Below are positions 12,293-25,951 of a stretch of 41,383 nucleotides of DNA, one piece after another; the first letter of the stretch is position 1, and each line of letters opens with the position of its first letter. The stretch is taken from the IMG/VR virus record IMGVR_UViG_3300016476_000410, positions 1 through 41,383 of that record; one strand, 5' to 3'. This DNA comes from a virus (Duplodnaviria > Caudoviricetes). Below the pieces are notes generated by a model. That model had not been told where the DNA came from. It was given only the letters and a program-made list of their open reading frames with translations, and ran no database searches. The position numbers and the translations under genes were made by a program.

Positions 12293-12838
12293 ATGGAAAA
12301 TTTAGGATTAAACGAAGTGGCTTTTTTATTAAGCAAAATTCAAAACGAGATTAAAGTACAAAAGAACAACTATAATCTTTTTGGTAAGTATAAATATCGT
12401 TCAGCAGAGGATATTCAAGTAGCATTAAAACCTATTTTGTTAAAACACGAAAGTTCAGTAATTCTAACAGATGAAAGTTTCGAGTTATGTGGAATACCAG
12501 TAGTAAGAGCAACAGCAAAGTTTATTTGTCCATTTGGTGAATTATCTGTAACAGCAGATGCAGGTGTTCAATTAGAAACTAAGGGAATGAATTACGCTCA
12601 AACTTTTGGAGCAAGTTCAAGTTACGCAAGAAAATATGCTTTAGGTGGACTTTTATTGTTAGATGATGTTGCTGATTCAGATGCTACTGAAAAACACGAT
12701 AGAAACGAGATTAAGGGTTTAACTGATGCTCAAATCAAATCATCTATTGAAAAAGGAACGCAAAAAGCAGTGTTAGAAGGTAACGGAATAAAATGGACAT
12801 TAACGGATAAGCAAGTTGAATTATTAAAAGCAAAATAG
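12293..12838 (+). CDS. erf: ERF-family single-strand annealing protein
   Basis: N.FGKYKYRSAEDI and AQTFGASSSYARKYALGGLLLLDD..DSDA motifs. Confidence 0.9.
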   Translation: MENLGLNEVAFLLSKIQNEIKVQKNNYNLFGKYKYRSAEDIQVALKPILLKHESSVILTDESFELCGIPVVRATAKFICPFGELSVTADAGVQLETKGMNYAQTFGASSSYARKYALGGLLLLDDVADSDATEKHDRNEIKGLTDAQIKSSIEKGTQKAVLEGNGIKWTLTDKQVELLKAK

Positions 12839-12922
12839 TTTTATAACGTTTTAGGGCTATGCGTCAGCCCGACTAACAAACTATGTACTTCGGAGGGTTG
12901 TCGCATAGGACTTGTTAGCACC
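12839..12922 (+). repeat. attC/Flavo-1-like hairpin element 1
   Basis: TAAC (12844) - CTATGCGTCAGCCC / GGGTTGTCGCATAG arms - GTTAGC (12914). Confidence 0.7.
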
Positions 12923-13032
12923 AGTTTTTTTGGTATTTTGATTTTATTTTACCATTTCAAATTACCACTTTTTTAGTAAACTCTTTATTTATAAGGGTTA
13001 CAAGTATGTTTAAATTACCAAATTTTAAAAAC

Positions 13033-13128
13033 ATGACAGAATTTCAAAGATTAATAGATGATTTAGAAGGTAACGGAAGTAAATGGGTGCTAACAGATAA
13101 GCAAGTTGAATTATTAAAAGCAAAATAG
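13033..13128 (+). CDS. 31-aa ORF ending in a duplicate of the ERF C-terminus (MTEFQRLIDDLEGNGSKWVLTDKQVELLKAK)
   Basis: A-rich leader; 13063-13138 repeats 12773-12848 (69/76 identical). Confidence 0.45.
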   Translation: MTEFQRLIDDLEGNGSKWVLTDKQVELLKAK

Positions 13129-13368
13129 TTTTATAACGGAACACAAATAAAAGCAGTAAGATATGAATAAGATAAAAGAACGTAAAAAAGTTGGAGCAAC
13201 TTGCCCCAAATGTAAAAGCCCTGACTACAAATATAACGGTAGGGTTTATGAACCTGATGGTAAGCATCAATTTGAATGTAAAAGTTGCGGAAACTTTTGG
13301 CAATATGGCAAGACCGAAAGTAAATATACAGAACTTGCTTAGTATTGCTTTTATTTGGTGTTAGCAAA
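13129..13368 (+). repeat. attC/Flavo-1-like hairpin element 2 with an ORF in its loop
   Basis: TAAC (13134) - CAAATAAAAGCAGTA / TATTGCTTTTATTTG arms - GTTAGC (13360). Confidence 0.7.
13163..13342 (+). CDS. 59-aa zinc-ribbon protein (CPKC...CKSC; IS1 InsA-like spacing)
   Basis: Manual translation: MNKIKERKKVGATCPKCKSPDYKYNGRVYEPDGKHQFECKSCGNFWQYGKTESKYTELA. Confidence 0.7.
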   Translation: MNKIKERKKVGATCPKCKSPDYKYNGRVYEPDGKHQFECKSCGNFWQYGKTESKYTELA

Positions 13369-13379
13369 TCGTTTTAATG

Positions 13380-13435
13380 TTTGCTAACATTCGTGTAAGA
13401 GATAGTTTTAATTTCTCTTACACTTTGTTATAAAA
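13380..13435 (+). repeat. attC/Flavo-1-like hairpin element 3 (minimal)
   Basis: TAAC (13385) - GTGTAAGAGA / TCTCTTACAC perfect 10-bp stem - GTTATA (13427). Confidence 0.7.
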
Positions 13436-13437
13436 TA

Positions 13438-13467
13438 TTTGATAATTAAAAATAATGTGTATATTTG
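13438..13467 (+). promoter_or_regulatory. Bacteroidetes-type promoter (TTTG-N18-TATATTTG)
   Basis: Consensus match upstream of the exonuclease. Confidence 0.65.
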
Positions 13468-13497
13468 CACAATACTAACAATTAAAAACTTAAAGTA

Positions 13498-14115
13498 ATG
13501 GTAGAAATTAATGTAGAACAAAGAACTCCTGAATGGATTGAATATCGTTTAGGCAAAATAACTGGAACAAGATTAAAAGAAGTATTAAGGTCGGATAACC
13601 TACCTTTAATTTACGAAATGATTGCAGAAGTAGTTAGTAAGCAAATCGAAGAAATTCCAGTTAACAAATCAATGCAAAGAGGTATTGACTTAGAGCCAGT
13701 AGTTAGACAGTTGTATCAAGATAAGTATAACGAGATTATTGAGGAAGTTGGTTTTTGTTTAAGTGATGAAAATGATTATTTAGCATTATCTCCCGATGGA
13801 TTTACATTAGATAGAAAAGGAGCAATTGAGATTAAGTGTCCATCTACTAAAACTCATGTTAAGTATATATTAGATGACAAAATACCTACTGATTATTTAC
13901 CGCAAGTTTGTATGTATTTCATTGTAAATACTGAATTAGAATGGTTAGATTTTATCACTTATGACGATAGATTTATCGAACTACCTATGTATGTTATTCG
14001 CGTTACAAGAGAAGAACTTTTTGATAAGATATTTGAGTTCAAAACGAAGATAGACAAGTTTACAGAGAAGTTTGAAAAGTATTATAGTAAGTTATCAAGT
14101 AAAATGTTGTTTTAA
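13498..14115 (+). CDS. YqaJ/lambda-exonuclease family protein
   Basis: EQRTPEW...RLGKITGT, MQRG..LEP, SPDG and EIKCP motifs. Confidence 0.92.
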   Translation: MVEINVEQRTPEWIEYRLGKITGTRLKEVLRSDNLPLIYEMIAEVVSKQIEEIPVNKSMQRGIDLEPVVRQLYQDKYNEIIEEVGFCLSDENDYLALSPDGFTLDRKGAIEIKCPSTKTHVKYILDDKIPTDYLPQVCMYFIVNTELEWLDFITYDDRFIELPMYVIRVTREELFDKIFEFKTKIDKFTEKFEKYYSKLSSKMLF

Positions 14116-14247
14116 CGGCTGACGCTATACGAAGGCAGGGGTTAAGATGCACTCCCTTTCAGCCTTGCACAAATGATAAATAGATGCGCACCGCTTGTAT
14201 TAGCAGTAAAGCCCCTGCTTTTGTATAGCGTATGTTATAGGGCGTTT
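14110..14247 (+). repeat. attC/Flavo-1-like hairpin element 4
   Basis: TAAC overlaps the exonuclease stop; ACGCTATACGAAGGCAGGGG / CCCCTGCTTTTGTATAGCGT 20-bp stem (2 G.T pairs); GTTATA at 14234. Confidence 0.75.
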
Positions 14248-14259
14248 ATTCTTACAATT

Positions 14260-14592
14260 ATGTCAGTAAATATTTCAAAATTAAAAAAAAGTAAAGTTTT
14301 TGAAAATGAGAAGATAAAAATATCATTTTCGACAGGAGAAGTTAGTGATGCACTTTCTGTTTATATTAAAGATGAGAACGGTAAAAATCACCATATTTTA
14401 TGGGAGATTTCACCTGATAGATGCCATCAAAACTTTGACAAATCCAATGAGAAAATCAGAGCATTTGTTAAAGATAAAATTGATGAATGGGTAAATGAAG
14501 AAGAAGAATCGGAAAGGTTAAGAAATGAAGCTATTAAAAACAGAAAGCATCGGGAAGAAAACGAGTTGCGTAAATTGACGGACTCTTTTTAA
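14260..14592 (+). CDS. Hypothetical cassette-borne protein (110 aa)
   Basis: ATG 14260 preferred (the track start lies inside the hairpin); flanked by GTTATAGGGCGTTT / AAATGCCCTATAAC. Confidence 0.7.
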   Translation: MSVNISKLKKSKVFENEKIKISFSTGEVSDALSVYIKDENGKNHHILWEISPDRCHQNFDKSNEKIRAFVKDKIDEWVNEEEESERLRNEAIKNRKHREENELRKLTDSF

Positions 14593-14663
14593 ATGCCCTA
14601 TAACTAATGGCTAATCGCCATATGTCGCATATACAACAAATAAACAAGTAAAAAAGTAAAATT

Positions 14664-14876
14664 ATGACAGCAGTAGAATGGTTAGAACAGATTTTAAAAC
14701 AAAGCTGCGGTAAAGAGTTTACTGAAGGTTATAAACAGCTATTCGATAAAGCTAAGCGAATGGAGAAAGACTCTGCAAGAAAGATAGCATACACAGCTTA
14801 TTGTGCTGCACAATGGCATGATGATGAAGCTAGTGAAAGTAAGTTTGATAAATTATTTAAAGAAAATTATGAATGA
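14664..14876 (+). CDS. Hypothetical protein (TAVEWL...AKxMEK type)
   Basis: Similar to the next ORF. Confidence 0.65.
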   Translation: MTAVEWLEQILKQSCGKEFTEGYKQLFDKAKRMEKDSARKIAYTAYCAAQWHDDEASESKFDKLFKENYE

Positions 14877-15039
14877 ATTAACACCGGTAGAATGGTTATC
14901 CCAATACATAGAAAAGCGGTGGATGGGATTAACTCCTTCATGGGTTCGTGATGCTATTTCACAAGCCAAAGAAATGGAAAAGGAACAACTGGAAAAAGTT
15001 TATCAGGAAGCATTAAGAGAAATATCAAAAAAAGATTAA
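14869..15039 (+). CDS. Hypothetical protein (TPVEWL...AKEMEK type)
   Basis: Paralog of the previous ORF; ATG 14869. Confidence 0.65.
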   Translation: MNELTPVEWLSQYIEKRWMGLTPSWVRDAISQAKEMEKEQLEKVYQEALREISKKD

Positions 15040-24628: not shown

Positions 24629-24720
24629 AAATAAATGTTACTTTTGTAAAGTTATATACTATTTCATTTGCTTTATTTTAGAAAATCCCTCTTGTCTGTT
24701 TAAGATTTGAGGGTTTTTTT
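24617..24720 (+). ncRNA. Candidate ~70-nt small RNA with its own promoter and terminator (hairpin probably also terminates terL and portal)
   Basis: TTG-N19-TACTTTTG (24639); CCCTC/GAGGG hairpin plus T-run; no ORF. Confidence 0.45.
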
Positions 24721-25951
24721 ATTTCTGAACTCCTTTTTTCAATCCAATAAATATTTTCTTTTCTTCATCAGACAAAGTTATTCCGAGTTCTTGTTCTATT
24801 TTGATTAAAGCACTTGCTCTATAATCGAATGCTTGAGATTCTTGAAGTATATCGTTCTGTAATACTGGTAAATGCTCATAATCTGCCACAAGTCTTAAAC
24901 CCTCTTTATCTAAACCTAATTGTTCACTGATATTGTCATATATTCTTTTTGCTTCAGGTATAATTGTAGAAGTATAACATAATCTTTCTCCATAATTCAC
25001 GTTAGAATAAGTTGAGCCACTTTCATTTGAGAAAATATAGTAGTTAAGTCCAAAAGCATCTATAATCGCAAGTTTATCAGCTTTAAGTTCATCAAACAAC
25101 ATTAAATCCTTAGTTGGAAATGACATTGGAGTCCATTTAACATCAGATTCAGAAATTATAAGCTCATCTTTAGAACGATTATACCAATCACGTTGAATTT
25201 GTTGTTTTTCTTCAGGCGACATTGGTAAAGCACCTCCTAAATCAGAGTTTGTTGTGGATAATATACCAATAGCACCAATATTTTCTAAAAGCACATTACG
25301 TTTGTTGTATTGAGCCTTTATATTAGATAATGGGTATTTTAACGATTCAATTCTTGATACAGAGTTTAAGATATTGACACCATCAGTAGTTTGAATGATA
25401 ATAACTTCTTCATTTGTTAATTTTTCTTTGTTGTCCTCGTTGAAATTATAGACATAATCTTTGATTAAACCTCCTTTATCCATTTGTTTCAATGAACGAC
25501 CTGATGTGTTTATTTGAACTTTATGAGTAGCAAGTGGAACAAATAAATTAACTATACCAAAACTTCTTTTTGGTGCATAACATAAAGCAGTAGAATATAA
25601 ACTATCATTAACTGATATAGAGTATATTACGTCTTGCCATGACTGCATTGGATTTGGATTTTTGATAAGGTCAAGCACCCAATGAGAATCAACTTCAGTT
25701 CCATCACTTTCTTTAATTAGTCTTGGTCTACCGTTAGACATCATTTGAGCCTTTTTATCTACAATAGTTCTTAATTCTGGTATTTCTATATACGCTTTAA
25801 ATGGCTTGGAGGTATCGAGCCATACAGCAGTTTTTTTACCGTAAAAGTCATGTTGATAGGCAGAAGTAGTATCGAATAGGTCAGAAATATGCCTAATAGG
25901 CTTTTTTATTTCAGTTCCAAAAAAAGCATTCCAAAAAGAAAGGTTACTCAT
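24719..25951 (-). CDS. Phage portal protein (HK97-like), inverted orientation
   Basis: 410 aa; L.L.KNPNPMQS, N.GAIGIL, W.PM..P.KD and STYSNV motifs. Confidence 0.9.
   Translation of the reverse strand: MSNLSFWNAFFGTEIKKPIRHISDLFDTTSAYQHDFYGKKTAVWLDTSKPFKAYIEIPELRTIVDKKAQMMSNGRPRLIKESDGTEVDSHWVLDLIKNPNPMQSWQDVIYSISVNDSLYSTALCYAPKRSFGIVNLFVPLATHKVQINTSGRSLKQMDKGGLIKDYVYNFNEDNKEKLTNEEVIIIQTTDGVNILNSVSRIESLKYPLSNIKAQYNKRNVLLENIGAIGILSTTNSDLGGALPMSPEEKQQIQRDWYNRSKDELIISESDVKWTPMSFPTKDLMLFDELKADKLAIIDAFGLNYYIFSNESGSTYSNVNYGERLCYTSTIIPEAKRIYDNISEQLGLDKEGLRLVADYEHLPVLQNDILQESQAFDYRASALIKIEQELGITLSDEEKKIFIGLKKGVQK

Follow-up and report, generated by a model that had tools for sequence, protein, structure and literature searches.

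We find that this phage genome carries small genes in units that resemble integron gene cassettes in mirror image, and we think it probable that these are moved by an Xer-like tyrosine recombinase supplied in trans. This reading builds on the boundaries and the polarity of the units, on the co-variation of their ends, and on the recombinase itself, which this phage does not encode and which, in sequence comparisons, lies behind the array in other phages. The units likely represent a gene-swapping system of viruses that probably infect Bacteroidota, and this system has barely been described so far.

The window, i.e. the whole stretch of 41,383 nucleotides, is a whole virus genome of 41.4 kb (record G000) that is rated complete and encodes terminase, portal, capsid and tape-measure proteins. 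A profile search of the whole record with PF00589 (Phage_integrase) gave no match, so that no tyrosine recombinase is encoded, as the initial annotation had stated. The host appears to belong to the Bacteroidota, since the minimal-body motif described below has 27 matches in GTDB, mostly in contigs titled Bacteroidota, since sites of this class occur in a Polaribacter phage, and since a promoter-like box is present. This box, TTTG-N18-TATATTTG at 13438-13467, presumably fits the Bacteroidota promoter consensus. Elsewhere in the genome, the portal gene (24719-25951, minus strand) lies in inverted orientation, flanked by the terminase and protease genes, and a hairpin resembling a terminator is located near 24680-24722. 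This inversion is also found in G045, G047 and G049 (three of the four records searched) and is thus a trait of the lineage.

The cassette region spans the early genes erf and YqaJ exonuclease. The TAA stop of the exonuclease gene is at the same time the TAA of the TAAC at site B. The features of the region are:

12293..12838, plus strand: erf, gene of a ssDNA annealing protein, left flank of site A (Pfam ERF 5e-29; PHROG 155)
12844..12917, plus strand: attC-like A1 hairpin with slight decay, heading a damaged cassette
12914..13062, plus strand: truncated body of A1, GCACC end class, usual closing end missing, runs into the erf duplicate
13063..13138, plus strand: repeated 3' end of erf together with TTTTATAAC, 91% identical to 12773-12848, derived from another erf allele
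13134..13388, plus strand: A2, intact inside-out cassette; the arms (13134-13363) enclose a gene and are followed by a 29-base minimal body (13360-13388)
13163..13342, plus strand: 59-aa CxxC...CxxC zinc-ribbon-like ORF inside the A2 loop (weak Pfam zinc-ribbon matches below cut-off)
13385..13430, plus strand: A3, fixed hairpin before the exonuclease promoter region; in L082, L083, L430 and partly L432, absent from L081 and L084
13438..13467, plus strand: promoter-like TTTG-N18-TATATTTG, called from sequence; TATATTTG box kept in L082, L083, L430 and L432
13498..14115, plus strand: YqaJ-type exonuclease gene (Pfam YqaJ 3.5e-22)
14113..14604, plus strand: cassette B, complete mobile unit of 492 bases; hairpin 14113-14237, body 14234-14604
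14260..14592, plus strand: 110-aa cargo ORF, family unassigned; frame open from 14173 within the hairpin
14601..14625, plus strand: candidate array terminus, attI-like, an AAC core without a closing hairpin; closes arrays in relatives

All four TAAC...GTTA hairpins of the initial annotation were recovered where it had placed them, and they exceed chance. In the region 12300-15000, four hairpins pass our test and three of them have a closing end no more than 600 bases away, whereas 500 dinucleotide shuffles of the region gave means of 0.25 hairpins and 0.002 with a closing end, and none of the 500 reached three. The remaining 38.7 kb of the window contain five hairpin-like matches, none with a closing end. 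Folding z-scores are -1.65 for A1, -4.51 for A3 and -2.49 for B on the plus strand, and -2.46 for A2 on the minus strand. The four end matches quoted alongside the hairpins all exist in the sequence, and two of them are true cassette ends, namely 14234/14604 (pairing over 12 bases) and 13360/13388 (over 7). The other two are doubtful: the A1 match is discussed below, and the GTTATAAAA/TTTTATAAC match around A3 is missing from the three relatives that show both sides of A3 (L082, L083 and L430). The attC 7-mer consensus RYYYAAC/GTTRRRY is matched by none of the eight ends in the window, where the triplet alone is kept. With four attC-type sites in 1.4 kb and no tyrosine recombinase in the record, the region has the composition of a CALIN.

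Related phages differ by whole units at site B. The window, L082, L083 and L430 share the flanks on both sides of this site and carry 1, 1, 5 and 1 different units, respectively; L084 has the right flank of the window and four units. Thus, five phages hold differing units before one shared terminus past the exonuclease gene, in agreement with the swapping site next to this gene that had been proposed. The left end of the array is a different hairpin each time, and the right end is a TAAC followed by the non-hairpin terminus. This terminus closes arrays in L082-L084, L430, L088, L091, L121, L130, L131 and L152, and is found behind unrelated left flanks; a related terminus is empty in L002/L123 and L165. 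Being shared by arrays with different last cassettes and forming no hairpin, it is a candidate counterpart of attI. L152 differs from L002/L123 and L165 by exactly one unit of hairpin and gene with the TAAC repeated, and a PF00589 search of this filled record found no recombinase. Cassette B recurs in L440, where it is 98.8% identical over 14110-14607, from TAAC to TAAC, between unrelated flanks; no match was found among GenBank phages. Its 110-aa cargo ORF has no match in Pfam or PHROG searches and has three relatives, each located after the right end of a hairpin. The hairpin and end pair of B carry three other, unrelated genes in L254, L307 and L312. The site-B alleles, the L152 and L123 pair and L440 all place the boundaries at the AAC/GTT core, as expected from the integron-like logic of core and inverse core, which is thereby supported. 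A scan for the terminus pattern yielded 81 loci, mostly chance gene starts; nine were followed by eye, and three more were repeat contigs.

On either side of site B, L431 and L432 match the window at 98-99% identity, yet they are without the whole island (14113-14962) and without an AAC at this position. The terminus as such was therefore acquired by another route. The span that they lack includes the terminus and the small genes following it, and their exonuclease stop overlaps the next start codon. These short genes (14664-14990 in the window) share a repeated start motif, TAGAATGGTTA, found at 13937, 14674 and 14888, and many contig joints connect 14679-14689 to 14961-14963, a second swapping spot of the homology type. 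In L084 (6001-6456), the match to the exonuclease breaks off at residue 152, where a damaged hairpin follows as the head of the four-unit array; an insertion or deletion has apparently broken a core gene there. In L081, L083, L091 and L430, the left end of an array often coincides with the stop codon TAA of an ordinary phage gene and a C after it, which gives the impression that stop codons are used as secondary target sites. Furthermore, many cargo genes have their start within the hairpin loop, so that their translation continues across the right arm and the GTTA core (e.g. L082 6619-6745; L091; L430). Twenty sequencing runs contain this sequence, with no RNA run listed among them; contigs of four of these runs contained no exact unit-removing joint, and such contigs cannot show rare excised forms.

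To describe the units as a class, we applied a parser to 368 loci and the window and obtained 257 distinct units. Because the search for these loci used the system's own motifs and the parsing is biased towards G·T, the numbers characterise the class and not how frequent it is. Among 134 units we found 34 pairs of near-identical hairpins, in which the right 5-mer is common to both members in 15 and the left 5-mer in none (background sharing 1.9% on the right and 1.6% on the left). Together with the allele comparisons, this defines the unit as a hairpin plus the body downstream of it, and the mobile order is TAAC-hairpin-GTTA-gene-TAAC. In 113 of 117 ordinary units and in 27 of 28 inside-out units, the G·T strand is the one that carries the gene. 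Judging from the unit boundaries, crossover takes place in the left AAC on the coding strand, and the genes are therefore back-to-front compared to integron cassettes; read on the minus strand, a phage array is a classical array with inverted genes. The initial annotation had placed the crossover at the right-hand G/TT with the gene followed by attC; this polarity is not retained, as the unit is a hairpin with its downstream gene, cut at the left AAC. A body can also change its hairpin, as seen in two of three body clusters and in L442, which indicates that right-end or homology-based exchange happens as well; the clustering of cargo is weak, with only these three clusters among 154 units.

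The anatomy of the sites would fit a recombination substrate. The two ends of a body form about 12 base pairs, the eighth of which is G·T in all 118 long-paired bodies. In the inner stem, position 7 is T·A in 145 of 148 cases and position 15 is G·T in 113 of 148. Both arms thus read T-W-N6-G·T, and apart from T-W-N6-G their sequences vary freely. No bulge is present in the first 13 pairs of 163 of 194 units, where the parser penalises bulges. The commonest spacers are 5/1 and 4/1, and G·T pairs outnumber C·A pairs by 309 to 50 in the 257 units, with a scoring that favours G·T. As in attC, the sites are hairpins with an unpaired central spacer and a skew of G·T to one strand. Two-fold arms around an asymmetric spacer would be the layout expected of a tyrosine recombinase site. 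Among short hairpins, 19 of 38 carry the CGTTTTAATG motif core, which is also found in 29-base bodies. There are 39 bodies of this 29-base type with nine co-varying 5-mer pairs around a fixed loop; the cassette ends thus co-vary, in support of the integron-like logic. A scan of viral contigs for such minimal bodies returned 122 stretches, which include many chance rows.

Site A is more difficult to read. The 3' end of erf is duplicated over 76 bases (copies at 12773-12848 and 13063-13138), which the initial annotation had overlooked, and a chimeric 40-aa ORF (13006-13128) ends in the duplicate. In a possible source run, depth over the shared 43-base piece is roughly double that of the adjacent sequence, which supports the duplication. 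The sequence GGTGCTAAC at 13086-94, previously taken as the closing end of A1, sits in this duplicate, pairs over only six bases and is one base off the ordinary erf allele of L083 and L430. Elsewhere, 24 of 26 closing ends of the GCACC type read TTGGTGCTAAC (81 loci examined), which this one does not. We thus doubt that it is a genuine cassette end; the match is probably due to chance, and A1 is most plausibly a cassette that has been truncated. The damage rather likely stems from the joining of two phage genomes through microhomology at TTAGAAGG; such a later event would have cut A1 and duplicated the tail of erf.

A2 has no real relative of its gene in viral contigs, where only three short spurious matches were found, and BLAST of the A1 and A2 pieces against the 368 loci gave no match. 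A contig from another run (X3) links the A2 arms (13134-13158 and 13343-13363) across a different middle, with a side of only 23 letters, hinting at the same A2 frame with other cargo in the loop. Much of the variation of site A in relatives is ordinary gene replacement. The idea of a resident hairpin site holds for A3 only, as site B ends in the attI-like terminus, which is no hairpin.

Some other phages with such arrays do encode a candidate enzyme. PF00589 matches are present in 10 of 49 array-bearing viral records and in 2 of the 15 near-complete ones; the same search found none in the complete related records G013, G045, G047, G048 and G049. Ten of the eleven matches start 36-87 bases past a cassette-closing AAC on the same strand; the end pairings of 6-7 at these AACs are the best of many, and hairpins are visible upstream in most. 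Nine of ten array-terminal recombinases are 263-296 aa long, and the remaining one (L378 1078-1677) has 199 aa with an internal deletion and is likely a decaying copy. For all eight phage enzymes tested, the best match is NF040815 (XerA-like), below every cut-off. The IntI profile TIGR02249 scores at most 164.5 bits with array-linked enzymes (seven of eight listed), compared to a cut-off of 265. One phage enzyme aligned to IntI4 (2a3v) has residues 172-202 where IntI4 has 175-248, i.e. about 43 fewer at the IntI insertion, which is given as the feature defining IntI (PMC4889954). Cellulophaga phage Ingeline_1 encodes an enzyme that is 38.8% identical; a strict scan upstream of it found no intact site, and the remnants there look decayed.

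Bacteroidota genomes contain related enzymes and arrays of their own. All five genomes tested carry a longer homologue that is 33-43% identical to seven of the eight phage enzymes compared. Host arrays lie downstream of the homologue in G050, G051 and G054, in G050 about 3 kb from the best IntI-like gene, past an intervening stretch; the contigs of G052 and G053 end before any array could be scored. All 16 detected host sites are without G·T on the coding strand and 15 of the 16 have the mirror spacer layout, so that the wobbles are on the non-coding strand and the polarity is opposite to that of the phage arrays. Structure hence follows site polarity and not transcription, which favours folded DNA over RNA. 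The G·T wobbles on the top strand, earlier regarded as a caveat, instead likely mark the strand that is folded and recombined. Due to this opposite polarity of the host arrays, the phage cassettes were probably not drawn from them. An enzyme acting in trans may come from the host or from another, co-infecting phage.

From these observations, we propose how the system could work. A unit consists of a hairpin that precedes or encloses a small gene, and related phages have or lack it as a whole, with boundaries at the shared TAAC. An Xer-like tyrosine recombinase from elsewhere would cut the folded coding strand at AAC. Once excised, the unit would be circular, and its coding strand would fold into two arms of 12-13 bp, T-W-N6-G·T, set two-fold around an unpaired spacer. 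The partner of this folded circle in recombination would be either the double-stranded terminus (14601) or the AAC of a further hairpin. Cargo could fill either loop of the folded circle, the outer one in B and the inner one in A2. As the gene follows its hairpin, a new cassette would be read from early phage transcription, so that no cassette promoter is needed.

Three other explanations have to be weighed against this mechanism. Ready-made arrays could be imported as blocks by the phage's own Erf/exonuclease recombination, without any recombinase acting on this genome. This would agree with the lack of a recombinase in the phage and in its five complete relatives (G000, G013, G045, G047, G048 and G049) and with the terminus behind unrelated left flanks, and block exchange is indeed seen in the erf duplicate and in the island-less L431 and L432. 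However, the four alleles with the same flanks hold different TAAC-bounded units, so that the donors must already differ in the same way, and L152 compared to L123 is a clean single insertion in a record without recombinase. We thus consider block import unlikely. Still less probable is that the hairpins are RNA processing or termination signals heading small early genes, with the ends serving as short homology for ordinary recombination: although the phage wobbles are on the transcribed strand and both body ends could pair within one mRNA, the host-array sites have theirs on the non-coding strand, the homology at the joint comprises four bases, no Rfam family matches, and 10 of the 11 recombinase matches adjoin the terminus.

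The least credible alternative, to which we give hardly any weight, is that of classical cassettes (gene, then attC, with a top-strand crossover at the right G/TT) that come from host integrons and enter at a resident hairpin. Inside an array, the pattern would be the same either way, some bodies do change their upstream hairpin, and A3 is a fixed hairpin. Yet the arrays open with a variable hairpin and have none at their far end, near-identical hairpins keep the right flank in 15 of 34 pairs and the left in none, host arrays are mirror-polar, and a hairpin of this class is reported as not recombined by IntI1 (PMC9892861). The empty and filled pair around L152, the linkage of hairpins to their right flanks and L440 contradict the classical polarity, which we therefore rejected.

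Mirror-image cassettes moved in trans remain our preferred reading, and several consequences would follow if the mechanism holds. Bacteroidota phages would own a modular gene-swapping system with a cassette pool separate from that of their hosts, which works even in small phages that encode no recombinase; the locus in the window adds clean boundary evidence from such a group. The system would account for some of the fast turnover seen among small early genes, DNA methyltransferase genes of P12002L among them. Folded-strand recombination would not need the IntI insertion, and its minimal substrates would be hairpins of 45-50 bases, empty bodies of 29 bases and a defined terminus. We also put forward, as a tentative idea that we hold to be possible rather than probable, that cassettes are reusable two-ended DNA frames which take up new genes at one or the other tip of the folded circle. 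The same combination of hairpin and end pair occurs with four unrelated genes (window, L254, L307 and L312), and both tips, when empty, show the same CGTTTTAATG motif. In this view, the recombinase without the IntI insertion would represent a second, possibly ancestral, way to recombine folded single strands. Cassette creation, which is unexplained for integrons, would then be within reach of a phage experiment, for which the cultured phages P12002L and Cellulophaga phage Ingeline_1 are suitable.

When comparing the units to known systems, the resemblance to Flavo-1 (RF01705) that the initial annotation had noted was not borne out. Flavo-1 is likewise an intergenic hairpin repeat of Bacteroidota (PMC2864571); however, a covariance search with Rfam gave no match in the window and 12 array-bearing loci. 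As a control, RF01705 matches are present in four of the five Bacteroidota genomes, and eight real matches have another sequence and no TAAC...GTTA frame. No other Rfam family reached its gathering score either, with only chance matches up to E=10. Xer/dif modules have fixed XerC/XerD binding sequences, whereas the phage arms vary freely apart from T-W-N6-G. Secondary-site insertion at attG could explain the left ends of arrays at TAA stops of phage genes; such insertion has been shown for IntI in E. coli (bioRxiv 10.1101/2022.09.11.507474).

Sites of the same class have appeared in print. Qi et al. 2023 list a cluster in Polaribacter phage P12002L as CALIN (PMC9892861); the sites are on the early coding strand, and no integrase is annotated in that phage. 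We observed two site clusters in P12002L (L435; 29171-32281 and 38879-40949), near methyltransferase genes. In that study, the attC1 oligo is a hairpin of this class with a CGTTTTAATG loop that was not recombined by IntI1. The attC2 site was recombined at the correct core, and only from one strand; according to our mapping it corresponds to the array terminus, and the oligo suggests which physical strand is called bottom there. The accessible text treats the P12002L sites as ordinary attC of divergent direction and does not describe the polarity, an Xer-like partner or in-loop cargo. For integrons as such, IntegronFinder 2.0 gives a single complete one in Bacteroidetes proper (PMC9024848), and a review counts Bacteroidota among the integron-bearing phyla (PMC8618304). 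Our literature search, outside which most subscription papers lay, found no mirror-polar system beyond the P12002L sites and no account of the polarity, the associated enzyme or in-loop cargo.

With integrons, the phage system shares the AAC/GTT core with precise insertion, the conservation of structure rather than sequence, the unpaired central spacer, the skew of G·T to one strand, the self-complementary cassette ends, and arrays whose starting point is no hairpin and lies next to the gene of a tyrosine recombinase, as these are described in PMC5027507 and PMC4889954. In attC, the G:T pairs are enriched on the recombined bottom strand, which is cut in its AAC (PMC5027507). In contrast to integrons, the gene of a phage unit follows its hairpin and is not upstream of it, the associated phage recombinase is without the IntI insertion and below the IntI cut-off, and the 7-mer consensus is absent. 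Furthermore, the phage arms are two-fold symmetric with a fixed G·T and, as parsed, mostly no bulged bases, the ends pair over about 12 bases, and cargo can sit in the hairpin loop. The system thus works like an integron but is not one.
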